Shown here: positions 10,831 to 47,065 of the stretch, one piece after another | Layout of the letters: each line of letters opens with the position of its first letter | Numbering within the stretch: the first letter of the stretch is position 1 | NCBI GenBank assembly: GCA_034189755.1 | Contig: JAXIHJ010000013.1 | Coordinates: forward strand, 1 to 48,097 | Reading direction: 5' to 3' | DNA: 48,097 nucleotides | Source: Planctomycetota bacterium | GTDB taxonomy: Bacteria > Planctomycetota > Phycisphaerae > SM23-33 | Made by a program: the position numbers and the translations under genes | Notes under the pieces: model-generated | Told to the model about the DNA's origin: nothing | Databases searched by the model: none | Seen by the model: the letters and a program-made list of their open reading frames with translations, nothing else

Positions 10831-13800
10831 TTAATTTTTCCTGCTTCCGCCGAGCAGGCTGAGCCGCCCGCCGCCGACGCGGACTTCGGGGATGCCCTCC
10901 GGCCAGAACGTCAGCAGCATCGTCAGCTCGTCGTCCGTCGCATCGTACTCAAAGGTAAAGGCGACGTACCATCGCGGCAGCTTACGGGTAAGCGTGATAG
11001 AAGTAGCGAGGTTCCGCCCGCCGTCGTAGTCGAAATCATACTGCTCGAAGACGCTCAGCGAGTATTTTCGGCTGATCTTGTAATTGAAGCCCACAGTGTT
11101 GATTAGTGAATCAGGCTTGTCGTATCGAAAACCGGTAGGCGAGAACCTGTCGCGGACCAACACCCTGCCGAATCGAAGGTATCGCATGCCGAGATAGTAT
11201 CTCAGTCGCGGGTCGCGCCGGACGGCCAGGCCTATATTCGCCCGTGTCAGCTCGCCCCGGCCGAAGTCGTAGTTGCCGTCGGTCATCAGCGTCGTGGAGT
11301 CTGAAATGTTCCAGGTGTACTCGAGGTTAAGGTAGTCCCGGCCCGTGCCGTACTCCGGCCTGGAGGAGAAAGACCGCCCCAGTCTCGGCCGCATAAAGAA
11401 CAGCTCGTTCGCTCCGGGAATGTGGAAGGGAACTATCTGCCCCGGCACCTTACCCATCGGGTCGGCCCCGCTGTCGGATATGCCAAGCACCATGTTCAGA
11501 CGCATCCAGTCCACCGTGTGCTGTTTGCCGGGTTGGCCCCGTTTGGTCTGCAACCGCTGATAAATGGCGAAGGTCGCGGCATTCTGGCGGCGCAGGTGTG
11601 TTTCAATACCAGGTTCCAACGGGTAGATCTCCAGCGCCTGAACGCCGCCCGTATCGGACATAAACGCCGTTATTTCGGGCGTAATGATGTGTTTGAGACG
11701 ATGGATGTTCCACAGCCGGCTCTGGACATTGTTGTACAGTCGCCAGAAATGGGTGTTCGCCTTGATACCGATCTGCCCATATGGCCGGCACCTCTGGCCG
11801 TTGCTGGATATCGACCGTGGCGGATCGATAGTGCTAAAGCGCCGGTCGTAAGTGTCGCACCAGTAGGTGGCCCGGCCTACGACGAACGGCACGAGGTTGA
11901 CCGGCCCGGCGTGAATCGGCCAGTTAAGCTCATTTCGGGTATCCAGCCTGCCGAACACCTCGCTGGTCGGATCCAGCCAGGGAGCTACCCGCCTGGCGCC
12001 GGAGGCAAGCACATCATCCGGCCGCCATCGCTTCAGGCCCGCATGCGATTCCTGGAAGAACATCAGCCGGTCCGCCCACAGAGGTTCGCCGAGAAGATGG
12101 AAACCAAAATCAGGCAACGATTCGGTCTGCGTCATGAAGCGGTTGATGCGGTACTGCAATAACGTGGTGAAGGCCCAGTTGTCCCGCTGCTTCTTGGCGT
12201 AAACAAGCGTTTCCTGCTCCTTGCCGGCGAAGAATTCGTTGCGGAAGTACTCTTCCAGGAAGTTGCGGTCGCAGACGTAGCTCAACTCAAACTGCAACTG
12301 CCAGTCGTTGGGCAGAAAGTGCTTGTGCCTCGCAAGTATGCGTCCGCGGGTGTCGGGCGCGGGAACGTTCTCCCGCTCGTCGCCGAAGTCGTCGCTGCGG
12401 GCGCGGTCCAGCACGCCGTAGGCCAGAAAGTAGCCGGTGTAGTCGTTGCCCCGAAGGTCGCGCCTGGCGTAATTAATGTCCACGCCGGCCATGACCCGCT
12501 TCTCGTAGTAATTCATGTCAAAGATGCCGCGGACACCTTCAGGCTTCAACAGCCCCAGCAGGCGGAACAAGTGCCACTCGGTCTCCACGCCCCAGCCGAA
12601 CCGTCCATGCTTGCCGGCCTGCACTCTTCGAATGGCCGTGTGCTCCCGAGTGAAGTCCTCCTGGGTCCGAGGCCAGTAGAAAATCGGCAGCCCGCGAACG
12701 TTGAAGGTGGTATGCTTCATCTTCGCGTGCCAGGTCTGTCGGCCTATGCGAACTTCCCTCTCATCATAAGGGGTTCTGTCCTCCAGGTGGACCTGCTTGG
12801 ACCCGAAATGGTAGCTGGGTGTATAAAAATCGCTCGTGGAGACCTTTGCGTCCTTGAACCACATCTCGCTGGCCGACAGTGTCCGGGCCTGTCTGGCCCG
12901 GATGTAGATGGGAATGTTGCGATGCTGTTGAACGGTGCGGAAGACCGCCTCGACCATGATGGCCCGGTCGGTGGTAAAATCGTAGTAGCAGCTCGGACCA
13001 CGCATGTACCGCTCGCCCCGGGCCAAGACCACGTCCCCCTCGAGATAGACACCGACAATCGTCTCGCGCTGGCCCGATGCCAACGGGATCGAAGCCTGGC
13101 GAGCCTTCGGCGCCAGCGGGAAGCGAGTTTTCTTTTCCGCAATGCCTTTCTCGCTGAATACCACAGCCGACTGGCTGCGGAGTTCCAGGAACAGGTCGCT
13201 GTCCGGCGAACCCTGGGAAAGATACACATTGCCGCGTGCGATGGTGATGCGGCGTGTCTTGCTGAGTTCCTGCGATACGAAGCGGTCCGCCCGGAACGTT
13301 ACAGTGCGGACGGTCGGCTGTACTGGCCGCTTGGCCCGAGGCTTGGCTGCCGGCTTGGCCGGTGATGCCTCGGCGGGCGTTTTTTTCACCGTGGCCGCAG
13401 GCTTACGCGGCGCCGGCACAGGACGCTTTACAGGCGCGGCTTCCTTCGCCTTGGCGGGCCGGCTGACGATTACCAGCGGCGGTGCGGGGTGTCGAACCGG
13501 TTGCTTGCCGGCTGAGGACCGGCCCGAAGCCTTCCGCCGGGCAGCCAACGCGCGCTTATACAGCGGGAAATCACTCAGCGGTCGTTTGGATACGGCCCCG
13601 GCGACAGTCAGGCGGCCGGCCTGACGCAACGTAACCAGCATAACGTGGTCCTGCGTGGTCTGGCCGCCGGGTTCGACGACCTTCGCCCGGCCTTCGACGT
13701 ACACGGTCAAATCGTGGCGGACGGTTTGGCCTACCTTGGAGGCCCGAACCCAAATGACGGCGTCCCGGCCGAACACAACGCGGTCGCCGGCTGTCAGCTT

Positions 13801-13998
13801 GAAGTCCCCCAGAACCAACGTAACCTGCCTGCCGGCGTCGGAGAAAAAATATATCGCCTTTCCTGTAATCTTGGCGTCGTCGAGTATGGCTTCCGCGTCG
13901 GCGGCATGCGCGCACGGCAAGGCCAGAAACGCACACGCCATGACTGCCGCAATCAGGCTGTCTGTACGACACGGTCTGCCGTCCAAAGTTTCTTTCAT
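10831..13998 (-). CDS. lptD: LPS-assembly outer-membrane protein LptD-like (long form)
   Basis: Start chosen at ATG 13998 (MKETLDGRPCRTDSLIAAVMACAFLALPCAHAADA, a signal peptide). It has OstA-like strands (ITIARGNVYLSQG, YLEGDVVLARGERYMRGPSCYYDFTTDRAIM). The LptD-type junction TSDFYTPSYHFGSKQVHL...VRGLPIFYWP is followed by a long aromatic-rich beta-barrel-like C-terminus. Confidence 0.7.
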   Translation of the reverse strand: MKETLDGRPCRTDSLIAAVMACAFLALPCAHAADAEAILDDAKITGKAIYFFSDAGRQVTLVLGDFKLTAGDRVVFGRDAVIWVRASKVGQTVRHDLTVYVEGRAKVVEPGGQTTQDHVMLVTLRQAGRLTVAGAVSKRPLSDFPLYKRALAARRKASGRSSAGKQPVRHPAPPLVIVSRPAKAKEAAPVKRPVPAPRKPAATVKKTPAEASPAKPAAKPRAKRPVQPTVRTVTFRADRFVSQELSKTRRITIARGNVYLSQGSPDSDLFLELRSQSAVVFSEKGIAEKKTRFPLAPKARQASIPLASGQRETIVGVYLEGDVVLARGERYMRGPSCYYDFTTDRAIMVEAVFRTVQQHRNIPIYIRARQARTLSASEMWFKDAKVSTSDFYTPSYHFGSKQVHLEDRTPYDEREVRIGRQTWHAKMKHTTFNVRGLPIFYWPRTQEDFTREHTAIRRVQAGKHGRFGWGVETEWHLFRLLGLLKPEGVRGIFDMNYYEKRVMAGVDINYARRDLRGNDYTGYFLAYGVLDRARSDDFGDERENVPAPDTRGRILARHKHFLPNDWQLQFELSYVCDRNFLEEYFRNEFFAGKEQETLVYAKKQRDNWAFTTLLQYRINRFMTQTESLPDFGFHLLGEPLWADRLMFFQESHAGLKRWRPDDVLASGARRVAPWLDPTSEVFGRLDTRNELNWPIHAGPVNLVPFVVGRATYWCDTYDRRFSTIDPPRSISSNGQRCRPYGQIGIKANTHFWRLYNNVQSRLWNIHRLKHIITPEITAFMSDTGGVQALEIYPLEPGIETHLRRQNAATFAIYQRLQTKRGQPGKQHTVDWMRLNMVLGISDSGADPMGKVPGQIVPFHIPGANELFFMRPRLGRSFSSRPEYGTGRDYLNLEYTWNISDSTTLMTDGNYDFGRGELTRANIGLAVRRDPRLRYYLGMRYLRFGRVLVRDRFSPTGFRYDKPDSLINTVGFNYKISRKYSLSVFEQYDFDYDGGRNLATSITLTRKLPRWYVAFTFEYDATDDELTMLLTFWPEGIPEVRVGGGRLSLLGGSRKN

Positions 13999-14183
13999 CA
14001 CCGATCCCACAGGGGTTTCATGCCGCTCCAACGCGGGCGCGATTATAAGAGTCCGGCAAACCAAGTCAAACGTCCATTTTGGCGCCGCCCACCGAAGCTT
14101 ACCTTGCCGTGGTGGTAAGCCGTTCAGCCTCAAGGGGCACATCCGCGGCGGTGCGGAGCGGGCGGCCGGTGTTGAGGCTTGTT

Positions 14184-16604
14184 CTACTGCCCTTTCAGCC
14201 AAGTTTCGATCTGCTTGATGCGGTCGGCCCTGGCCGAAGCAGGGTCGTAACCGGTGAGGTTGGGAGCGAGCTGGCTGAGCAAGGCGAGGATGGCCTTTTC
14301 GGCCTTTTCCGTATCGGCATCAGGCTTTTCTTCGTCGGCCAAGAGTTTTTTCATCTCTTCCAGCAGCGGGACGACGGCACGGTCGGACATGGCCTGCAAT
14401 TGCTTTTCGGCGGCATCACGTGCGGATTCCTCAGCGCCCAGGAGTTGCCCGACAAGGCCTGCGACCTTCCGGCGGTCGGCAGCCGCCTGCTCCGAGCGGC
14501 TGTGGGCCAGCAGCTTCTCCAGCTCAGTGCGATGCCGGACGGTAAGCCGCTGCGACAACTGATCGATCGCAGCCTGCGCCAGCAGAATCACGGGCGAGAA
14601 CTTTAACTCGCCGGCCAGGACCTTCAGCCGGGCATTGAGCCGTTTCAGCGCCTCGACAAAAAGCTCGTCGGTAACATTCTCATCGGCCATGGCCTTGACC
14701 GCGGCGGGATCGGCGGCAGCCAGAAGCGCATCGATCCATTCAATCCACGCACGGTCGGCCCGGATGCTTTTGGCCGCCGCCAGCAGTTTATGGGCCTCTG
14801 CAAGGTACGGCGCTGCCTCTGCGGGCCTGCCCGCCTTCACCAGCGCCCGGCCGAGGGCTTGCTGTCTGGCCGGCAGGTCGGCTGACTTCTCGGTCTTCAG
14901 CAATTCCACAAGCATCTGCAAAACTTTGATTCGCTGCGCGTCGGCGTCGGCGCGATCGGCCAGGCTGTCGGCCACAGAACCAAGCGTCCCGGCGTCGGCC
15001 TTGGCAAGGACGTCCATGGCCACGTCCCATGCCTGCTGACGCACGGCGGCGTCGCGCTCCATCGCCGGGTCGGTACGCTGAAGGATGCTCTGCAAATGTT
15101 CCTGGCCGTCAAGTGTGCCCAGCGCCGCTATGGCCGCCTGCCTGACGCCGCGGTCCGGGTCGGCCACCAGAGGCCGGATGATCGCCGCCGACCGGGCCTG
15201 CCCAATCCTGGCCAGGGCGTTTACCGCAGCCAGGCGGACCGTCGCTGAAGGCTTTTTTGCGGCGCCTTCCAGCGCGGCGATAAAGTCCTTGTCGCCGACA
15301 ACGCCCATGGCGGTCAGAAGCGCCTCCCGCAGCGCTGCGACCGGGTCGGGTTCCGCCACCTGGCCGGCCCGGGCGTACCTGCCCAGCAGGGCCTTGACGG
15401 CTGAATCATGCTGGTCGTCGTCAAGCGGCTGGGCGGCGGCGATGCGCGACAGGGCGGCGGCAGCGGCGGCGGCTACGATTTCAGAGTCCGATTCTATCTC
15501 CGCCAGCACCGACGGCAGTGCCAGCGGGTCGTGCAACTGCCCCAGCGCCCTCAACAGCTCGGCCCGCACCTCGGGCGACTTCTCAACTTTCAGCCGGCCC
15601 AGCAGTTCCACGGCGGCCTCGGCGTAGCCCAGATTTGCAACTAAAAGCGCCGCCTGGCTGCGCACGGAAGCGTTGCCGTCGCGGAGCATCGCGACAATCT
15701 GTTTCCTCATTTCGGCAGGAATCTCATCGCCGCCGGCGATCATGCGGTCAGCCAGTTTAGCGCCGACCAGGCGCACGTCGGCCAGCGGGTCTTTCAAAAA
15801 TGTAATCACCATCGCCTCGCGCTGGTCGGCGGGCGTGGCGGCGTACAGGTCGCGCATGGCCTGGGCCAGGCGATCACGCAGCCGAATGTTGTCGGTTTCC
15901 AGCCCGGCCTTGGCGCGCGCGAGGTTGTCGGCAAGATCGGCCAGCCATTCGGAGCGGTCCTTGTTCTTGTTCCGCTGCCACCATCGCTTCCACCTCATGC
16001 GGTCGACGCCGAAGGCGCGAATATTCGTGAGCTTCGCCAGGGCCTGGCAGGATGTGTTTTGAACGACCCGGTCGGGATCGTCAAGCAGGCGCACCAGGGC
16101 ATCCACCACGCGCTTATCCAGTATGCGATGCAGCGACTCTATTGTTACAAGACGAACCGCCCGTTCGTGCCAGCGGTCACAGGCGATAGCAATAAGCTTC
16201 TTGGTTACGCCGTGGTCCTTATAAGTTGCCAATGCCCTGCCGGCCGGTGCGCGAACGGAATCTTCCCGCCCCGTAAGCATTGCCGTCAGCGGCTCGATGA
16301 AGATAGGTCCGCCGCCATGAAGAGTGATAGCATCGGCGACAGCCACCTGGGCCTGGCGGTTGGATGAATCTTCCAGGAAACCCCTCAGCACCTTGGCGGC
16401 TTCGGGATAGCTGCGGCTCAACAGCAGTTCAGCCGCCTCGATTTTGGTCTTGGAGTCGCGGGCGGGGTCGGCAAGCTGGCCGATGAGCGTTTTAAGCTCC
16501 ATTTCTTCGGCAGGCATCAGTGGCGGCGGCTTAGGCCTGCATCCACCAATGCACGCCAAAAAGCACATAACGATCGCCGGAATTGCTCGTCTCAGGGTCT
16601 TCAC
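14184..16604 (-). CDS. HEAT-repeat protein, probable lipoprotein
   Basis: 806-aa ORF with a GTG start. The N-terminus KTLRRAIPAIVMCFLACIGGC is a signal peptide with a lipobox-like Cys. The body is Ala/Leu-rich with recurring HEAT-type units (D.DR.VR..A..ALG, e.g. DPDRGVRQAAIAALGTL, DPDRVVQNTSCQALAKL). Confidence 0.7.
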   Translation of the reverse strand: MKTLRRAIPAIVMCFLACIGGCRPKPPPLMPAEEMELKTLIGQLADPARDSKTKIEAAELLLSRSYPEAAKVLRGFLEDSSNRQAQVAVADAITLHGGGPIFIEPLTAMLTGREDSVRAPAGRALATYKDHGVTKKLIAIACDRWHERAVRLVTIESLHRILDKRVVDALVRLLDDPDRVVQNTSCQALAKLTNIRAFGVDRMRWKRWWQRNKNKDRSEWLADLADNLARAKAGLETDNIRLRDRLAQAMRDLYAATPADQREAMVITFLKDPLADVRLVGAKLADRMIAGGDEIPAEMRKQIVAMLRDGNASVRSQAALLVANLGYAEAAVELLGRLKVEKSPEVRAELLRALGQLHDPLALPSVLAEIESDSEIVAAAAAAALSRIAAAQPLDDDQHDSAVKALLGRYARAGQVAEPDPVAALREALLTAMGVVGDKDFIAALEGAAKKPSATVRLAAVNALARIGQARSAAIIRPLVADPDRGVRQAAIAALGTLDGQEHLQSILQRTDPAMERDAAVRQQAWDVAMDVLAKADAGTLGSVADSLADRADADAQRIKVLQMLVELLKTEKSADLPARQQALGRALVKAGRPAEAAPYLAEAHKLLAAAKSIRADRAWIEWIDALLAAADPAAVKAMADENVTDELFVEALKRLNARLKVLAGELKFSPVILLAQAAIDQLSQRLTVRHRTELEKLLAHSRSEQAAADRRKVAGLVGQLLGAEESARDAAEKQLQAMSDRAVVPLLEEMKKLLADEEKPDADTEKAEKAILALLSQLAPNLTGYDPASARADRIKQIETWLKGQ

Positions 16605-39723: not shown

Positions 39724-42426
39724 CTACCGCCGGCAGCAAATTTTCACGGTGATTATCTCGTTGGCGCCGTACTGGAACGTTACCGAACCGTCCGGTCCGA
39801 CGGGCAGCGGCTGAAGTTCCTCTTCGGCCAGGCTGACCCTGGCGGCGGATTCGACCTTGCCGTAAATACCCAGCGTGGCCTGGCCCGCCTTGTCCGTCAA
39901 GTTCACCAGCCGCACAATCAGCCCCGAGCCGTCCTCCGAGAGCTTCATGGCGCTTAGTTCCAGACAGTTCGGCTGGATTTGCAGGAAGCCGCCCTCGGCC
40001 GGCAACGGGCCGCCGGTATTGCCCCGGCACGTAACGCCGCGGCACGGCAGGCGGTAGGCTTCAGCTTCCTGAGCCACGCCGCCGCCGGACCAGTCGCCGG
40101 CATGTGGGAAAACGGAATAGTGAAACACGCAATCGCCCGGACACTGTCCGCCCGGCGAAGGTTGCCAGGGCGGGTCGCTCTGATTGCGATTGGTGGTAGC
40201 CAGGCCTCCGCGCGTAATCGCCTCGACGCATCGCATAAGCGTAATCGCCAGCGTAACGCCTTCGGCGGCGGGTATCGCCTCGCATTCCGGCAGCCCGCGA
40301 GTGAACACTGCCGTGCCCTGCCGCCCGTCGCTCACGTCCACAAAAGTTTCCTGCGGATACGTCGGCAGCGGTTCTTCAAACCAGTCGCCGGTCTCCTTGG
40401 CTCCGATCGGGCGGCTGACAACGTCCAACTGGCCGGCGGCGCAGGATTTTTCCGCATTGACGCCGGTCGGCAACAGCGTCCGCAGTCGATGGTCCTTTGC
40501 ATGGTTGTCGATCCGGATACAGACGTCCACCCGGCGCTGCCTCAGCGCAGCCGTAACCGACACCGGGCAGCAGACCTGCTCGGCTGTGCGGCTTTGCCTG
40601 TCCTGGCTGACGGACCCCGGCAGGTGCATCTCGCCGGTGACGAGTACCGCATTGCCACCGGCCGAGGTTACGCGCCCGTTCTTCAGGCCGCGGACAATCT
40701 CGTCATTTTTCGGCGGTGAATAATTGTAAAAGTCGCCGTTGTCCCCGCCGTCTTCCAGCAGGTTGCAGCCCTTGGCCAGCCGGCCGCTGCGCTTCTCCAA
40801 CAGGTCAAACGTGCCGTCAGGATGCACCTGAAGCCGCAGAAGTTCGTTTTCCAGCACGCCTTCGGCCGGTGCGGCCTCGGCGGCCGGGGCATCGGCCGGG
40901 CGAACGACGTAACAGCGATATCCCATAGCCGGCACGTCGGCAGCCCGGAAAGAGATGGTGAACCGGCTGGCCTTCTCGAAAAAAAGAACCTTTACCGGGT
41001 CTAAATCGAAGACGTACGGCTCATGGCGTAACACCGTTATGGGTATTTCCTCGCCTGCCGGTGAGTGGAGCGTCAGGCCCCGCACATTGGCGTCGGCCGG
41101 GAAGCTTACCGTCGTTTCCACCACTTCCGAGCGGCTTCGCAGGGCCGGATTGAACAGAACCAGTGTCTGCTCATCGTCACCTAAGTGCGAAAGGTCGATC
41201 CTGCCGACGATGTTCCTGAAGGCCTCGATGAGCAGTTCTTCGGTAATCTGCCGGCAGGAGGCGTATCGCGTCATCATTTCCTCGTGCACGGCGTCTACGC
41301 TGCAGCCGCAGATGGAATCGTGCGGATGGTTCTTCAAGAGGAACTTCCAGGCCAGGTCGAAATACTTCCGCTGGTAGTCTGCGCCGAGCGACCATGCGGC
41401 GGCTGCAAACGGCTCGGACCATCGCTCCAGTTGAGTCTGGGCCGCTTCATTCGCCTGTTTGAGAAATGGCCTTGTCGAAAGCGTTCCAAAAAGGATATCG
41501 CCCTCGCGGCGGCGGCGGAATTCTCCTGGCACTGCGCTTAGCTTCGGGGTTTCGGACCGGATGGCCTCGAACAGCAGCGGCAGCGTGGAGTGCACGATTT
41601 GGGCGCCGTTCAGCAGGCCGTTCGCACCGGCGATAATTTCCGGCAGCTCTGGCTGCGGGCGGGCGTGGTCCACGCCGTTCATCAGCAGCAGATGCCTCGT
41701 GCCGGCGTATTGTTCCAGTTTTTGGGCCAGCACCCCTATCCGTTCGGCAGCGGCCTTGGGCTCGGCGGGCAGCCTGGCGGCGTTGAAGTAGCCGTCGTTG
41801 TCGTAGACCGAAACCTCGGCCTGGGCGGGCAGGTTGTCGTTCTTGTCTCGTGGCCGGTCGGCCGGCAGCCTGAGCGTCAGGACCTGCGAACCGTCGGGCG
41901 ATTCCCAGAGAAACTCGCTGTCCAGCTCCCCGCCGTCCGAATCGCCCACGCCGCGCCATATAACGGCGCTGTTCATCCCGAAGCCCTTCAGTATCTGCGG
42001 CATCTGGGAGATGTGCCCGAACTGGTCGGGCAGGTAGCCGACGTTCATAACAGGCCCGAAGCCCTCGGCCGCCTTCTTGCCGTAGATGAGGTTGCGGATC
42101 AGCGATTCGCCGCTGACCAGGAACTCATCCGGCAGGACGTACCACGGGCCTATCTGGATGCGGCCCTGGGCTATCAGCCTGCGCAGGCGGTCGGCGTTTT
42201 CGGGACGAATTTCCAGGTAATCCTCCAGCAGGATAGTCTGGCCGTCGAGCATGAAGTACTTGTAACCAGAAACGTTCTCCAGAATATCGAGCAGCTCGTC
42301 CACCAGCATCACCAGCCGCATCCGGAACTGTTGAAAGGTCAGATACCATTCCCGGTCCCAGTGCGTATGTGAAATCAGGTGAAGCACATTTTTATCTTCC
42401 GACTGCCTCTTGCGTCCTTGAACCAT
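39724..42426 (-). CDS. Glycoside hydrolase family 38 alpha-mannosidase
   Basis: 900-aa ORF with the N-terminal GH38 signature LHLISHTHWDREWY, then ...DGQTILLEDY...WYVLPDEFLVSGESLIRN and ...NHPHDSICGCS. No signal peptide, so probably cytoplasmic. Confidence 0.85.
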   Translation of the reverse strand: MVQGRKRQSEDKNVLHLISHTHWDREWYLTFQQFRMRLVMLVDELLDILENVSGYKYFMLDGQTILLEDYLEIRPENADRLRRLIAQGRIQIGPWYVLPDEFLVSGESLIRNLIYGKKAAEGFGPVMNVGYLPDQFGHISQMPQILKGFGMNSAVIWRGVGDSDGGELDSEFLWESPDGSQVLTLRLPADRPRDKNDNLPAQAEVSVYDNDGYFNAARLPAEPKAAAERIGVLAQKLEQYAGTRHLLLMNGVDHARPQPELPEIIAGANGLLNGAQIVHSTLPLLFEAIRSETPKLSAVPGEFRRRREGDILFGTLSTRPFLKQANEAAQTQLERWSEPFAAAAWSLGADYQRKYFDLAWKFLLKNHPHDSICGCSVDAVHEEMMTRYASCRQITEELLIEAFRNIVGRIDLSHLGDDEQTLVLFNPALRSRSEVVETTVSFPADANVRGLTLHSPAGEEIPITVLRHEPYVFDLDPVKVLFFEKASRFTISFRAADVPAMGYRCYVVRPADAPAAEAAPAEGVLENELLRLQVHPDGTFDLLEKRSGRLAKGCNLLEDGGDNGDFYNYSPPKNDEIVRGLKNGRVTSAGGNAVLVTGEMHLPGSVSQDRQSRTAEQVCCPVSVTAALRQRRVDVCIRIDNHAKDHRLRTLLPTGVNAEKSCAAGQLDVVSRPIGAKETGDWFEEPLPTYPQETFVDVSDGRQGTAVFTRGLPECEAIPAAEGVTLAITLMRCVEAITRGGLATTNRNQSDPPWQPSPGGQCPGDCVFHYSVFPHAGDWSGGGVAQEAEAYRLPCRGVTCRGNTGGPLPAEGGFLQIQPNCLELSAMKLSEDGSGLIVRLVNLTDKAGQATLGIYGKVESAARVSLAEEELQPLPVGPDGSVTFQYGANEIITVKICCRR

Positions 42427-42464: not shown

Positions 42465-45437
42465 TCAACTACCGCCGCCGGTAACTGATTCTGTAACTAT
42501 ACGGTTGTCCCGCCGGTACCAGATAATTTTCGGGCTGGACCATCGCTGGGACCGCTCTGATGCGGCGTCTTCATAGTACAGGTTCGCGTTGGCCGGCGGC
42601 CGGCCCTGGCCGAAGCCCCACACGATAGCCAGGTCGCGCAACCGGTCGTAGATGAGCCGCTGGCCCAACACTTGCCGCGGGCCGTCTTTGAGGTTCACCT
42701 GTTCGGTGGCGGTGAACAAATCGAGCGGTCCGAGCCTCGGGCCTGCCTGCCAGGCGTCGGCGACCGGCTGCGTGGAGGTGCGGGCGTCCGGCGTGCCGAA
42801 TTTGGTCATGAGCCGCCGGCAGGTCAGCACCGTCTCCCGGCCGGCGCCGATTTCGCCCCAGGGCCTGACGTTGAGCCGCTTGGTCAGCACAACCTTCCGG
42901 CCGCTGCGATGGACCATCACCACGTCGCCTTCCATAACGCCGAGGCGCTTCTCCTGTGAAAGCTGGAGCGACTTTTGCCACTCGAACGCCGTCTGCGAGG
43001 GACGTTCTATGTTGGTGGTGGACTGGTCTGAATCGCCGTGGCGGGTTTCCGGCTGGCGGTAGTCCTCGACCAGCAGCGTGCCGGCGCCAGTTACATTCAG
43101 CTCGCTGAGGCGGGCGTCGTAAGTCAGGTGCTGGCCCGAAAGTTGAAGGCGGCGAAGCAGATGTCCGGCTTCGTCTTCCTTGTGGCTTCGCAGCTTGACG
43201 CGATTTTCAGCCAGGATCATCGCCACGCGCCGCCGGCTGTAGCGGTCCATGCCGACGAGGCGACTGCGTTTTTTTTCGGCCGCCGGGGCGGGTTCATCTG
43301 CCTGCAACTTTTCAAACCAAACCCGCATCGCCTGGCATTCCAAGTGGTCGTTGCCGCTGTCGAGCGTAACGTCGCCGGCGAATTCCGCTATGCCGGGCCG
43401 GCCGTTGTAGTCCATCCGTCTGGCGAAGGCGATTTCAACCGGTCGAGGCCGGCTCAGCTTGGCGCCGTTGAGGTCCTTGCCGGTGTTGAACCGCAACACG
43501 CCGCCGCCGCGGACGGAGACCGACTCGTCGGCCTCTTTCAAGTTGATGCGTTTGCCGCTGAGGCTGTTCGGCCCCTGCTTGATGCGCGCCGGGGCGCCCA
43601 GCAGGACGGCTTCACGGCGGATCAGGTCGCTGCTGAGCCGGTCGGCGACGGCGTGCATCGGCTCGTCCTGGTCGCGCCGGTCGGTTACCACAACGTCGTG
43701 CTCGGCCAACATGCTCACCGCCCGTACGCGCATCGACTCGTCGCCGGAGCCGGCCCGGCCGGGGCGTTCGGCGAACTCAACGGTAACCTTGCCGGCACGA
43801 ATATCGCTGCCTTCCTGGCGGGCCAATACGTCGCCGGTGGCGACCGCCATGTGAGGATACCTTCGCCCGCTCGCGCCGTCAGCCATCCAGACCTGAAGGT
43901 GCTCGCATCGCACAAAGTCGCCCGTCGCGGCCTGTTGAAGCCTAACCCGGCCACGGAAGGCGGCCTCTTCGATGACCTGGCGGGTACGTTCGGTTCCGTC
44001 ATTGCGGCGGACGGTCTGCCCGGCGAACTTAACCTGCACCGAGTCGCGCCAGTGGATGTAATCGGCCTTGGTTTTTTCGGCCTCAGGCCCGGAGGCCGCG
44101 CCGCGAACAATAGAACCCTCACCGAGCAGATTAGCCATGCCCGTCCGCCGGTCGAAACGAATCTTCCGGCAGGTAACCCTGTCGCCGGCGGCGAGGTTCA
44201 GTTCGGCGGGCTTTTGCCCGGCCCCAATCAGTTCGCCGACCTGGCCGGGGCTGACGAACGAGAACTCGCCGCAGACGGCGGTGGTCTGCGAATCCGTCAG
44301 CACGACCCGCTCGCCGGCGGCTGAAACCCGCCAACGCTCGTCGGACGGCTCGGCCACGTGCCCGATGGGCTTGAGCACCAGCGGGCCAGACCACCGGATG
44401 CGCATCGGCTGGCCTGCGGGCTTCTCGGCCGGCTGCGTCTCGGCATCGCCGGCGGGGGCGGTTGCCGGCCGGCTGGAGGCCCTGCGCGAACGGCGGCTGG
44501 AACGCTGCCACTCAAAGACCAGCGAGAGCCTCTCGGCACCTCGCACTCGACGATCGCCGCTGTCGACGCGCACGTCCTGGCCGTCGGCGGCGAAGAAGTC
44601 CGCCCGATAGACATTCTTGGCCGGCGGCTCGGCTGGAGTGTCCTCGTCCAGACCGGTAATCTGCGTGGCGGGCATGCTTGCAGGCGTCTGGGGCACGGAT
44701 GCCCCGGCCCCGGCCCGGCCAGGCCCGGCAGACGCGCCGCCGGGCAGCAGGACCGCATTCGCACGGGACGGCATGCTGTAGATGAGCATAGTCTTACCCT
44801 GCTCGATGCGAAGCTCTCGCAGCTCGCGCGGCACCTCGTTCCATCGCAGCAGAAGCCCCCTGCCGTGGATGTCGGCCTCGGCGGAAAGCAGCTTTACCGG
44901 GCCGGCGGTGGTTATCTCCTGAAGGTCGCTGTTGAAATACAGGTCATCGGTGAATATCCGGACGACGTCCCCCGGGCGCTGCTCCGGCGGCGTGCGGTCG
45001 GCCTTGGTTGAGCGGTCGAAGAAAATTCTCACGTTGCCGCGCAGGCTGCCTTTGCGGATGTTCCAGTCGCCGCCGGCCAGTTCTTCGGCGTAGACCGTGC
45101 CCTCATCGGCCCGAATGGTGATAACCTGGCCGCCCCGCTGGTACAATTCGATATCGGGGTCGGTCAGCAGGTAGCTTTCATCGTCCCGCTTGGTCCACCG
45201 CCTGGCCCCGTAGACGCCTTCGAGCCGGCCATGCCTGTCGCGGGTGATGGTGTGGAGGTCCTGGCCCTCGCCGGCGTCGGTTCGGCCCTGGACGGCGGTC
45301 GGCCTAGGGTGCCCGGCAGGCAGGTTAGGCCGGTCGGGTTCTTCGTCCTTCCAGCTATGGGTAACGATGTGATAAAGCCCGACCGTCACCAGCAGGGCCG
45401 CAAACGTACCGGCCAGCATAATCGCTTTTCGTTTCAT
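42465..45437 (-). CDS. Giant membrane-anchored protein of repeated OstA/LptA/LptC-like modules
   Basis: 990-aa ORF with an N-terminal anchor KAIMLAGTFAALLVTVGLY. Jellyroll-type strand motifs recur along the whole length: GSLRGNVRIFFD, FRGRVRLQQ, ATGDVLARQEG, AEHDVVVTDR, FAGDVTLDSGN, AENRVKLRSH, MEGDVVMVHR, ATEQVNLKDG. Its start overlaps the kdsC stop (ATGA), which is the position lptC-lptA occupy after kdsD-kdsC in E. coli. Confidence 0.6.
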   Translation of the reverse strand: MKRKAIMLAGTFAALLVTVGLYHIVTHSWKDEEPDRPNLPAGHPRPTAVQGRTDAGEGQDLHTITRDRHGRLEGVYGARRWTKRDDESYLLTDPDIELYQRGGQVITIRADEGTVYAEELAGGDWNIRKGSLRGNVRIFFDRSTKADRTPPEQRPGDVVRIFTDDLYFNSDLQEITTAGPVKLLSAEADIHGRGLLLRWNEVPRELRELRIEQGKTMLIYSMPSRANAVLLPGGASAGPGRAGAGASVPQTPASMPATQITGLDEDTPAEPPAKNVYRADFFAADGQDVRVDSGDRRVRGAERLSLVFEWQRSSRRSRRASSRPATAPAGDAETQPAEKPAGQPMRIRWSGPLVLKPIGHVAEPSDERWRVSAAGERVVLTDSQTTAVCGEFSFVSPGQVGELIGAGQKPAELNLAAGDRVTCRKIRFDRRTGMANLLGEGSIVRGAASGPEAEKTKADYIHWRDSVQVKFAGQTVRRNDGTERTRQVIEEAAFRGRVRLQQAATGDFVRCEHLQVWMADGASGRRYPHMAVATGDVLARQEGSDIRAGKVTVEFAERPGRAGSGDESMRVRAVSMLAEHDVVVTDRRDQDEPMHAVADRLSSDLIRREAVLLGAPARIKQGPNSLSGKRINLKEADESVSVRGGGVLRFNTGKDLNGAKLSRPRPVEIAFARRMDYNGRPGIAEFAGDVTLDSGNDHLECQAMRVWFEKLQADEPAPAAEKKRSRLVGMDRYSRRRVAMILAENRVKLRSHKEDEAGHLLRRLQLSGQHLTYDARLSELNVTGAGTLLVEDYRQPETRHGDSDQSTTNIERPSQTAFEWQKSLQLSQEKRLGVMEGDVVMVHRSGRKVVLTKRLNVRPWGEIGAGRETVLTCRRLMTKFGTPDARTSTQPVADAWQAGPRLGPLDLFTATEQVNLKDGPRQVLGQRLIYDRLRDLAIVWGFGQGRPPANANLYYEDAASERSQRWSSPKIIWYRRDNRIVTESVTGGGS

Positions 45438-45973
45438 GCCGGCCGGCCTTCTTCAGCGGGAAGATACCTGGCGAGGATTTGGTCCCACCGGCCAGACCCT
45501 TTAAGGATCAGCTCGATGACCTCGCGGACGGCGCCGCCGCCACCGGGCGCCTCGGTTACGTAGGCCGCCGCACTGCGAACCTCCTGAACGGCGTCGGCGA
45601 CGGCTATCGGCAGGGCGCACCGCTGCATCATCGGCAGGTCGGCCAGGTCGTCGCCCACCACGGCGGTCTGCTCGTTGGTCATGCCAAGCTCGGCGAGAAC
45701 TTCTTCATAGACCGGCGCCTTCCTGCGGATGTCCAGGCGGCAGATGTCCACGTCCAGTTCCTCGGCCCGGCGGATAACCGCCTGCGAGCCGCGCCCGGAA
45801 ATTATCGCCAGCTTGCCGCCGACCCGCTTCCAGTACTTCATGCCCGACCCGTCGCGGGCGTTGAACGCCTTGATCTCCTGGCCGGTCGACGTAAGGACAA
45901 TCCGCCCGTCGGTCAGCACGCCGTCAACGTCCAGGACGAGCAGTTCGATCTTGTCGGTTTTAATCTGCGTCAT
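45434..45973 (-). CDS. kdsC: 3-deoxy-D-manno-octulosonate 8-phosphate phosphatase
   Basis: 179-aa ORF with the HAD motif I LLVLDVDGVLTDGRI, then ...FNARDGSGMKYW...VGDDLADLP. It lies downstream of and overlaps kdsD. Confidence 0.88.
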   Translation of the reverse strand: MTQIKTDKIELLVLDVDGVLTDGRIVLTSTGQEIKAFNARDGSGMKYWKRVGGKLAIISGRGSQAVIRRAEELDVDICRLDIRRKAPVYEEVLAELGMTNEQTAVVGDDLADLPMMQRCALPIAVADAVQEVRSAAAYVTEAPGGGGAVREVIELILKGSGRWDQILARYLPAEEGRPA

Positions 45974-46961
45974 GGCTCACCGTCTTGATGCCGAGCAGGT
46001 CCTGAACGTCGATCACGCCGACGGGCCGGCCGGCGTCGTCCAGCACCGGCAGCTCGTCGATGCGATATTTGTTGAGCGTAGCCATGGCTTCGCTGGCCAG
46101 CTCGCCGACGTGAATGTGCTTCGGGTCGCGTGTCATAAGTTCGGCGACCGGCTCGTTGAGAATTTTCTCGCCGCCGGTTATCAGCGCCCGCCTAAGGTCG
46201 GCGTCGGTCAGGATGCCGCTGAGCCGGCTTTGCGAGTCCACCAGCAGCATCGCGCCGGTGCGTCGCGGTGTTTTTTCCGCCTCGGCCAGGGCCGCCGCGA
46301 CGGTCAGCGAGTCGTCGACGACGCTGAGCCTCTCGCCGGCGCAGAAGCTCATTGCCTCTTCGACCTTCAGCAGCTTTCTGCCAAGCGCACCGGCCGGGTG
46401 AAACACGGCGAAGTCTTCAGGCTGAAAGTTGCGCATCTGCATCACGGTAAGCGCCAGCGCGTCGCCGAGCGCCAACATGCACGTCGTGGAAACCGTCGGC
46501 GCCAGTCCAAGCGGGCATGCCTCCTGTAGAGGCCCGTAGCAGACAACGACGTCGGCGTGGCGGCCCAGCGGAGAATCGGCCGAGCCGGTTACGGCGATAA
46601 GCTTCGCGCCGCGGGCCTTGATGTGGTCCGTCAGCCGGACAAGCTCCTCGGTCGCCCCGCTGTGTGAAAGCGCCACAACCACGTCCCTGTCCTGCAGCCT
46701 GCCCAGATCACCGTGCAGCGCCTCGACCGGATGCAGAAAGATGCTCTGCGTGCCGGTCGACGCCAGCGTGGCGGAGATTTTCTCGCCGACTATGCCGGCC
46801 TTGCCGATGCCCGTCAGCACCACCTTGCCGCAGCAGCCGAAAACCGCCTCAGCCGCCGCGACAAACGATTCGCCGATCGTCTCGGCCAGTGCTGCTACGG
46901 CCTGGCCCTCCAGCTTCAGCGTCTGGCGGGCAAGCTCCAAATTCACTTGCGTTCCGTCCAT
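45960..46961 (-). CDS. kdsD: Arabinose-5-phosphate isomerase (SIS + tandem CBS)
   Basis: The SIS domain reads GKVVLTGIGKAGIVGEKISATLASTGT...ALSHSGAT and is followed by a CBS pair. The ATG at 46961 (MDGTQVNLELARQ) is preferred over the TTG at 46976. Confidence 0.88.
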   Translation of the reverse strand: MDGTQVNLELARQTLKLEGQAVAALAETIGESFVAAAEAVFGCCGKVVLTGIGKAGIVGEKISATLASTGTQSIFLHPVEALHGDLGRLQDRDVVVALSHSGATEELVRLTDHIKARGAKLIAVTGSADSPLGRHADVVVCYGPLQEACPLGLAPTVSTTCMLALGDALALTVMQMRNFQPEDFAVFHPAGALGRKLLKVEEAMSFCAGERLSVVDDSLTVAAALAEAEKTPRRTGAMLLVDSQSRLSGILTDADLRRALITGGEKILNEPVAELMTRDPKHIHVGELASEAMATLNKYRIDELPVLDDAGRPVGVIDVQDLLGIKTVSHDAD

Positions 46962-47065
46962 CGGATTAATTTCCAAAAAGGTTCCAAAAACTTCCCGGAA
47001 AACCGCCGCGCATTATGATTGCTCAGGCCGCGGCGGTCAAGCACAAGGGCTTCTTGCGGGCGCAT

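Follow-up and report, generated by a model that had tools for sequence, protein, structure and literature searches.

We analyzed a 48,097-nucleotide (nt) stretch of DNA (the window), contig JAXIHJ010000013.1 of a Planctomycetota bacterium from the SM23-33 lineage of Phycisphaerae (assembly GCA_034189755.1), and focused on one open reading frame (ORF) of 990 amino acids (aa). The source genome is a 2.1-Mb metagenome-assembled genome (MAG) of 155 contigs that is 94.6% complete. An earlier interpretation made from the letters and their translations alone (the sequence-only reading) had taken this ORF for a fusion of LptC with several LptA-like units, that is, for the periplasmic part of the lipopolysaccharide (LPS) transport bridge in a single polypeptide. 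The ORF and its overlap with the preceding gene are as described there: the ATG of the fusion ORF and the TGA of kdsC share the four letters ATGA, which we read directly in the sequence. The identification of kdsD and kdsC upstream also holds, because both products score above the cut-offs of TIGR00393 and TIGR01670 (Table 1). The start of kdsD may alternatively be the ATG at position 46961.

Profile searches recognize both LptC and LptA in this protein. The Pfam LptC model (PF06835) matches residues 58-118 of the whole protein with 27.6 bits (cut-off 21), and scores 32.2 bits (E 1e-7) on the isolated N-terminal jellyroll segment, referred to below as module 1. The Pfam OstA/LptD_N model (PF03968) matches residues 527-635 with 43.1 bits (cut-off 20.4, E 5.8e-11). 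The NCBIfam models for LptC (TIGR04409) and LptA (TIGR03002) align over residues 56-195 and 520-645, respectively. We found no match in the 990-aa protein to the LptD barrel family (PF04453) or to MCE, and none in Pfam to AsmA or DUF490, even at E <= 10 on segments of the protein. The single N-terminal membrane anchor noted earlier is supported by hydropathy, as residues 4-26 form the only 19-residue window with a mean Kyte-Doolittle hydropathy >1.6.

The predicted fold agrees with these calls. An AlphaFold2 model built on 32 homologues (mean predicted local distance difference test score (pLDDT) 79.6, predicted template modelling score 0.64) is all beta except for the anchor helix at residues 2-26. 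It contains five beta blocks (57-219; 276-309 with 345-445; 459-654; 660-792; 814-982) and low-confidence loops at 27-53, 235-268, 314-341, 712-728, 800-808 and 886-897. The best Foldseek matches in the PDB, with probability 1.0, were LptD, LptC (6mjp_C, 6mit_C, 3my2, 4b54), LptA (2r1a, 2r19) and LptH (4uu4), with template modelling (TM) scores of 0.55-0.70 normalised to the small LptA and LptC targets. For the LptA structures 2r1a and 2r19, the target-normalised TM-scores were 0.57-0.69 and the root-mean-square deviations 3.6-6 A, the aligned module being unspecified. TamB was not among the top 50 Foldseek matches listed for the model. Profile and structure searches thus both return the OstA/LptA-like folds that the sequence-only reading had anticipated.

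For the module count, we cut the family alignment into segments and compared the segments profile against profile (hhalign). Two segment types alternate along the chain: type 'a' at residues 270-312, 455-525, 655-712 and 810-880, and type 'b' at residues 343-452, 520-650, 735-795 and 895-985. Within each type, the segments matched one another with probabilities of 74-97% (E 1e-5 to 1e-10), while reversed-target controls (72 hhalign comparisons) reached at most 6.6%. Because of the register of the Pfam and NCBIfam LptA models (527-635 and 520-645), we consider one a+b pair to be one OstA-like module. The third module carries an extra 'a' half-unit, with residues 485-522 resembling residues 524-559. 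The alternating segments and this half-unit therefore resolve the chain into an anchor, one LptC-like module and four LptA-like modules, the third of them extended, in line with the fusion proposed earlier.

The four LptA-like modules are documented in different ways. Module 3 has the direct profile match, and in a PDB profile search it retrieves LptD N-terminal domains. Module 4 has a Pfam LptD_N match in 9 of 18 relatives (best E 1.2e-4) and matches the two halves of module 3 with hhalign probabilities of 97% and 91%. Direct Pfam matches to module 2 are weak and occur in 2 of the 18 homologues; its second half matches module 3 (96%) and its first half module 4 (88%). Module 5 is the best-conserved module, with a mean identity of 0.48. 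Internal homology and the model together point to modules 2 and 5 as further OstA-like units.

Table 1. Features of the fusion protein and of genes discussed in the text (window positions; residues refer to the 990-aa protein)
Feature	Positions	Strand	Length or supporting evidence
LptC-LptA(x4) fusion ORF, stop codon included	42465..45437	minus	990 aa; Pfam, NCBIfam, AlphaFold2, Foldseek
N-terminal transmembrane anchor, residues 4-26	45360..45428	minus	Hydropathy; model helix 2-26; kept in homologues
Module 1, LptC-like beta-jellyroll, residues 55-222	44772..45275	minus	Pfam LptC; TIGR04409; 11 model strands; Foldseek LptC chains 6mjp_C, 6mit_C, 3my2
Ala/Pro/Gly-rich disordered connector between modules 1 and 2, residues 223-274	44616..44771	minus	pLDDT <50 over 235-268
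Module 2, putative OstA/LptA-like, residues 275-448	44094..44615	minus	Internal homology (hhalign); model
Module 3, OstA/LptA-like, residues 457-656	43470..44069	minus	LptD_N 527-635; TIGR03002 520-645
Module 4, OstA/LptA-like, residues 657-797, with disordered loop 712-730	43047..43469	minus	Pfam in relatives; hhalign
Module 5, putative C-terminal OstA/LptA-like, residues 813-990	42468..43001	minus	hhalign 95% to module 2, 88% to module 3, 97% to module 4
kdsC, 3-deoxy-D-manno-octulosonate (Kdo)-8-phosphate phosphatase	45434..45973	minus	TIGR01670, 160.9 bits (cut-off 106.95)
kdsD / KpsF-GutQ-type arabinose-5-phosphate isomerase, SIS + 2 CBS	45960..46976	minus	TIGR00393, 281 bits (cut-off 203.7); Pfam SIS, CBS
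GH38 / mannosylglycerate-hydrolase-like gene	39724..42426	minus	NF007331, 550 bits (under cut-off 1138)
lptD, outer-membrane LPS translocon, from ATG 13998	10831..13998	minus	1055 aa; Pfam LptD, model, Foldseek

Two details of the sequence-only reading required revision. It had placed Pro/Ala/Ser/Arg-rich linkers between the modules. Both of the stretches that it cited exist (one within 223-274, the other at 312-343) and are predicted to be disordered, with pLDDT <50. However, only the first separates two modules: the Arg/Ser/Ala/Pro-rich loop 312-343 (nt 44409-44504) splits module 2, and the register of the internal repeats places the stretches 712-730 and 885-899 inside modules as well. Together with 561-568, these three inserts lie at equivalent a/b junctions. 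The true inter-module connectors are 223-274, 446-458 and 793-813, and modules 3 and 4 are joined by a turn of five residues. Among homologues the module lengths are near-constant, whereas connectors and inserts vary about 3- to 4-fold in length (33 to 137 aa for the connector 223-274) and their identity is low (0.14-0.32). The second detail concerns strand motifs, of which at least eight of the type G-[DN]-V-x-[ILV] had been claimed. The strict motif occurs only twice (residues 134 and 688), and because of this low number we dropped its count as evidence. Looser versions are enriched: G-[DN]-V occurs five times where shuffled sequences give 0.63, and G-x-V-x-[ILVFM] six times against 1.5 expected. 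The motif repetition is thus real, although it had been overstated.

The fusion is conserved in sequence families well beyond this genome. Metagenomes yielded 33 clusters of homologues of 1000-1220 aa, and those that carry a name in their source are labelled as LptA/OstA family proteins of Phycisphaerae. A scan of 1.84 billion representative sequences returned 1286 relatives at E <= 1e-3, of which 317 pass E <= 1e-30; lengths of 1000-1250 aa predominate. We then searched GTDB genomes for related loci, using the 13 closest sequences as seeds. All 28 loci found belong to Phycisphaerae or Planctomycetota MAGs, and at each locus with an available flank the fusion gene is directly preceded by kdsC or kdsD-kdsC. 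The order kdsD-kdsC-fusion is kept in about 20 Phycisphaerae loci, and kdsD precedes the fusion gene in most related loci with a flank long enough to include it. Complete ORFs at these loci encode 1026-1233 aa and start with a hydrophobic segment. Both the kdsC/kdsD synteny and the long anchored ORF persist even at 22-25% identity. Of 81 genomes sampled from the class, 72 contain a homologue, typically in an open frame of ~940-1430 aa, and genomes assembled into a single contig have only one such locus each.

Fusions with clean Pfam assignments occur in other Planctomycetota. One of 869 aa comprises LptC and four LptD_N domains and has kdsD upstream. Two more, of 657 and 660 aa, combine LptC with three or two LptD_N domains. 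Among the three fusion loci from other lineages (L048-L050), kdsD is upstream in two. We conclude that the fusion characterizes the phylum and that the number of modules differs between lineages.

The 990-aa ORF is the sole Pfam OstA match and the sole Pfam LptC match in the genome. Searches with five clade-specific hidden Markov models (HMMs) of the modules, run with filters off, found no other module-like ORF among 18,550 six-frame ORFs. Neither Pfam nor the module HMMs detected a stand-alone OstA ORF in the genome. Separate canonical lptC and lptA genes, which would have spoken against a fusion, were not found elsewhere in the genome or beside lptB. Apart from kdsD, kdsC and lptD in the window, genes of the pathway were located on other contigs: lptB (330 bits, cut-off 240) is flanked by an S26-peptidase-like ORF and an AAA ATPase gene, neither of them lptC or lptA, and lptF and lptG are adjacent ORFs on a third contig (C86, locus L019 4282..7402, minus). 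LpxC is encoded as well (272 bits, contig C28:5469-6284, plus).

We consider it likely that the product of this gene is the periplasmic part of the Lpt bridge in single-chain form. By homology with the E. coli Lpt system, the N-terminal helix would anchor the chain in the inner membrane in the manner of LptC, and the helix and module 1 would join the ABC transporter LptB2FG, from which the LptC-like jellyroll would take LPS. The LPS would then slide along the hydrophobic grooves of the covalently linked modules 2-5, which would form a continuous path, until module 5 transfers it to outer-membrane LptD, at the jellyroll that forms the LptD N-terminus. The order of the modules is compatible with head-to-tail contact from the LptC end to the LptD end. 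The high conservation of module 5, the presumed LptD docking end, fits a conserved docking surface. In this mechanism, covalent linkage stands in for the head-to-tail contacts by which LptC and free LptA assemble non-covalently, and because the modules are covalently linked, the number of units would be fixed genetically.

The comparison with E. coli LptC (YrbK) and LptA (YhbN) (PDB 3MY2, 6MIT, 2R19/2R1A) shows the same folds and Pfam families, an LptC-type N-terminal anchor, the same head-to-tail order of units, a position right after kdsD-kdsC, and the presence of the partners LptB, LptF/G and LptD. In contrast to E. coli, there is one polypeptide instead of two or more, with four LptA-like units in fixed number; a free periplasmic LptA carrying a signal peptide is absent; the modules contain disordered low-complexity loops; lptB lies elsewhere; and the sequence is very divergent, falling under the NCBIfam equivalog cut-offs. 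Free soluble LptA is a protein of ~160-185 aa with a cleavable signal peptide, whereas the units here sit in a 990-aa anchored chain. We assign the domains of the protein to the LptC and LptA Pfam families; the protein would work as LptC and LptA do, and is a member neither of the NCBIfam LptA and LptC equivalogs nor of the class of free periplasmic LptA. The fusions of other Planctomycetota share the anchor, the LptC domain and the tandem OstA domains, but their chains are shorter and their modules either less numerous or more compact, with clean Pfam calls; the Phycisphaerae form is longer (~1000-1250 aa) and more divergent, with large disordered inserts. The best profile and structural matches to module 3 are to the LptD N-terminal jellyroll (PF03968; PDB 5IV9, 4Q35). 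The fusion nevertheless lacks the C-terminal beta-barrel of LptD, and its N-terminal helix anchor assigns it to the inner membrane. True LptD is a separate gene in the window (Table 1).

That lptD gene encodes an unusually long protein (1055 aa, compared with 784 in E. coli). The first start listed for it, a TTG at 14202 (ORF 10831..14202), probably lies upstream of the true one, since a signal-peptide-like segment comes after the ATG at 13998. In the model, an N-terminal jellyroll (42-137 and 234-407) precedes the barrel (423-1033). A disordered Pro/Ala/Lys-rich insert of ~70 residues (161-230) interrupts this extended jellyroll, and the Pfam LptD_N model fails to detect this N-terminal domain. 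With Foldseek, the model matches full-length LptD structures (E 7e-27 over ~860 columns).

Several observations weigh against a single-chain bridge. The NCBIfam equivalog cut-offs are missed for both LptA (TIGR03002, 41.1 vs 71.7 bits) and LptC (TIGR04409, 31 vs 38 bits). Module 5 has no Pfam match in any of 18 relatives, and PDB profile searches with modules 2 and 5 returned nothing. The N-terminus of LptD shows no sequence link to the modules, as hhalign gave at most 4.9% probability. LptE (PF04390) was not detected in a Pfam search of the genome, despite the presence of LptD; LptE is poorly conserved, and either the model misses an equivalent that has diverged too far or something else serves as the plug. 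The disordered connector of 52 residues after module 1 could make the chain flexible and not rod-like. Finally, a small divergent LptA could be encoded in the missing ~5% of the genome, and could be missed because the genome is an incomplete MAG in 155 contigs.

This last point leads to an alternative that we regard as unlikely, in which the fusion is an accessory or alternative Lpt-like carrier while a highly divergent separate LptA and LptC, missed by our searches, form the main bridge. The Pfam OstA model is insensitive in this phylum, matching only 19 of the 61 planctomycete genomes sampled, and the incompleteness of the MAG and the undetected LptE also leave room for such proteins. However, the module HMMs found nothing else even with filters off, single-contig genomes of the class have one locus only, and the fusion gene occupies the canonical position after kdsD-kdsC. 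The chain could also be a polyprotein-like precursor that is cut at its low-complexity linkers in the periplasm, releasing a membrane-bound LptC and free LptA-like units that assemble non-covalently as in E. coli. The long, variable and disordered Pro/Ala/Ser/Arg-rich stretches 223-274 and 312-343 would suit such processing, and the large S26 signal-peptidase-like ORF adjoining lptB is suggestive only. Against this, most inserts are intra-module at equivalent loop positions, so that cleavage there would split a jellyroll; the junction of modules 3 and 4 is a five-residue turn with pLDDT >90; the poorly conserved linkers show no evident conserved cleavage motif; and other lineages have compact chains of LptC with 2-4 units. 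We judge such processing to be quite improbable.

We also considered that the protein may bridge the periplasm for a different lipid, such as a phospholipid or another glycolipid, in the manner of AsmA, TamB or YhdP and not for LPS export. TamB- and AsmA-like proteins are built on this plan too, with an N-terminal anchor and then ~1000 aa that form a long beta-rich groove. The Pfam matches are nevertheless to LptC and LptD_N and not to AsmA or DUF490, the top structural matches are all Lpt proteins, the Kdo-synthesis genes kdsD and kdsC are conserved neighbours, and the genome encodes lpxC, lptB, lptFG and lptD with no other LptC or LptA, which makes this explanation very improbable indeed. 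With TamB and YhdP (AsmA-like), and with the long MlaD-type bridge of Veillonella (PMC10665443), the fusion protein shares the concept of one anchored polypeptide that spans the periplasm as a lipid conduit, but the families and folds are unrelated at the sequence level.

For the single-chain Lpt bridge, we made a rough estimate of length from the model, multiplying DSSP strand counts by 4.8 A per strand position. The chain would then provide ~20 nm of jellyroll, and the bridge would measure perhaps ~30 nm with LptFG and the extended LptD jellyrolls. This estimate agrees with a published value of 16 nm for four jellyrolls, i.e. ~4 nm each (PMC5575297). The planctomycete periplasm can be greatly enlarged and variable, as shown in Planctomycetia, not in Phycisphaerae (PMC5394234). 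More speculatively, the whole periplasmic span of the LPS bridge in Phycisphaerae may consist of one polypeptide without free LptA, with other module numbers across Planctomycetota, and the fixed number of modules (LptC+4 here, LptC+2-3 elsewhere) may serve as a molecular ruler, setting or reporting how far apart the inner and outer membranes are (~30 nm) at sites of LPS export. We offer this extension as a tentative idea, possible but on balance doubtful.

A literature search found no paper that describes natural LptC-LptA fusions, and nothing relevant on planctomycete Lpt systems or on long cyanobacterial LptC. In the survey of planctomycete outer membranes by Speth et al. 2012, the markers were limited to LptD and BamA. 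Genome surveys would list LptA and LptC as missing or unusual in Planctomycetota, which our results correct. For E. coli, the number of LptA units per bridge is still open, as is the choice between a stable rod and a transient assembly; Tork and colleagues reportedly called the LPS bridge transient in a title of 2023. A natural and widely conserved single chain in which the number of units is fixed is a defined object for structural work and reconstitution, and the comparison of module number with envelope width across Planctomycetota offers a test.

The gene downstream of the fusion is GH38-like, and no lptB follows there, as the sequence-only reading had stated. It starts 38 nt 3' of the fusion gene and has its own AAGGAG site. 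We rejected it as a member of the Lpt locus: none of the related loci has a GH38-like gene, and because of this absence we place it outside the Lpt system. Near lptD, an 806-aa HEAT-repeat protein (14184..16604, minus) overlaps the lptD start region, and in the genomes of two other planctomycetes a HEAT-repeat ORF directly follows the LptC-LptA fusion gene (L049 3..1247, minus; L050 301..2220, minus). We set this protein aside as a candidate Lpt partner. No HEAT gene is adjacent to lptD in the LptD loci L051 and L052, so the association may be due to chance.

Some of the other LPS-related ORFs of this genome are also of unusual size. The LptF/LptG-family ORFs encode 551 and 495 aa, compared with ~360 aa for LptF and LptG in E. 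coli, and the additional length may correspond to enlarged periplasmic domains. The LpxC match sits in an open frame of 507 aa, far longer than stand-alone LpxC, and may represent a fusion to another domain, e.g. FabZ. Upstream of lptB (contig C102, locus L018), the S26 signal-peptidase-like ORF is unusually large, at 569 aa. Directly 3' of lptB lies a 565-aa ORF with an AAA_21/AAA_15 ATPase and a DUF4435 domain (contig C102, locus L018 7650..9347, plus), a combination reminiscent of PARIS-type (AriA-AriB-like) anti-phage proteins.

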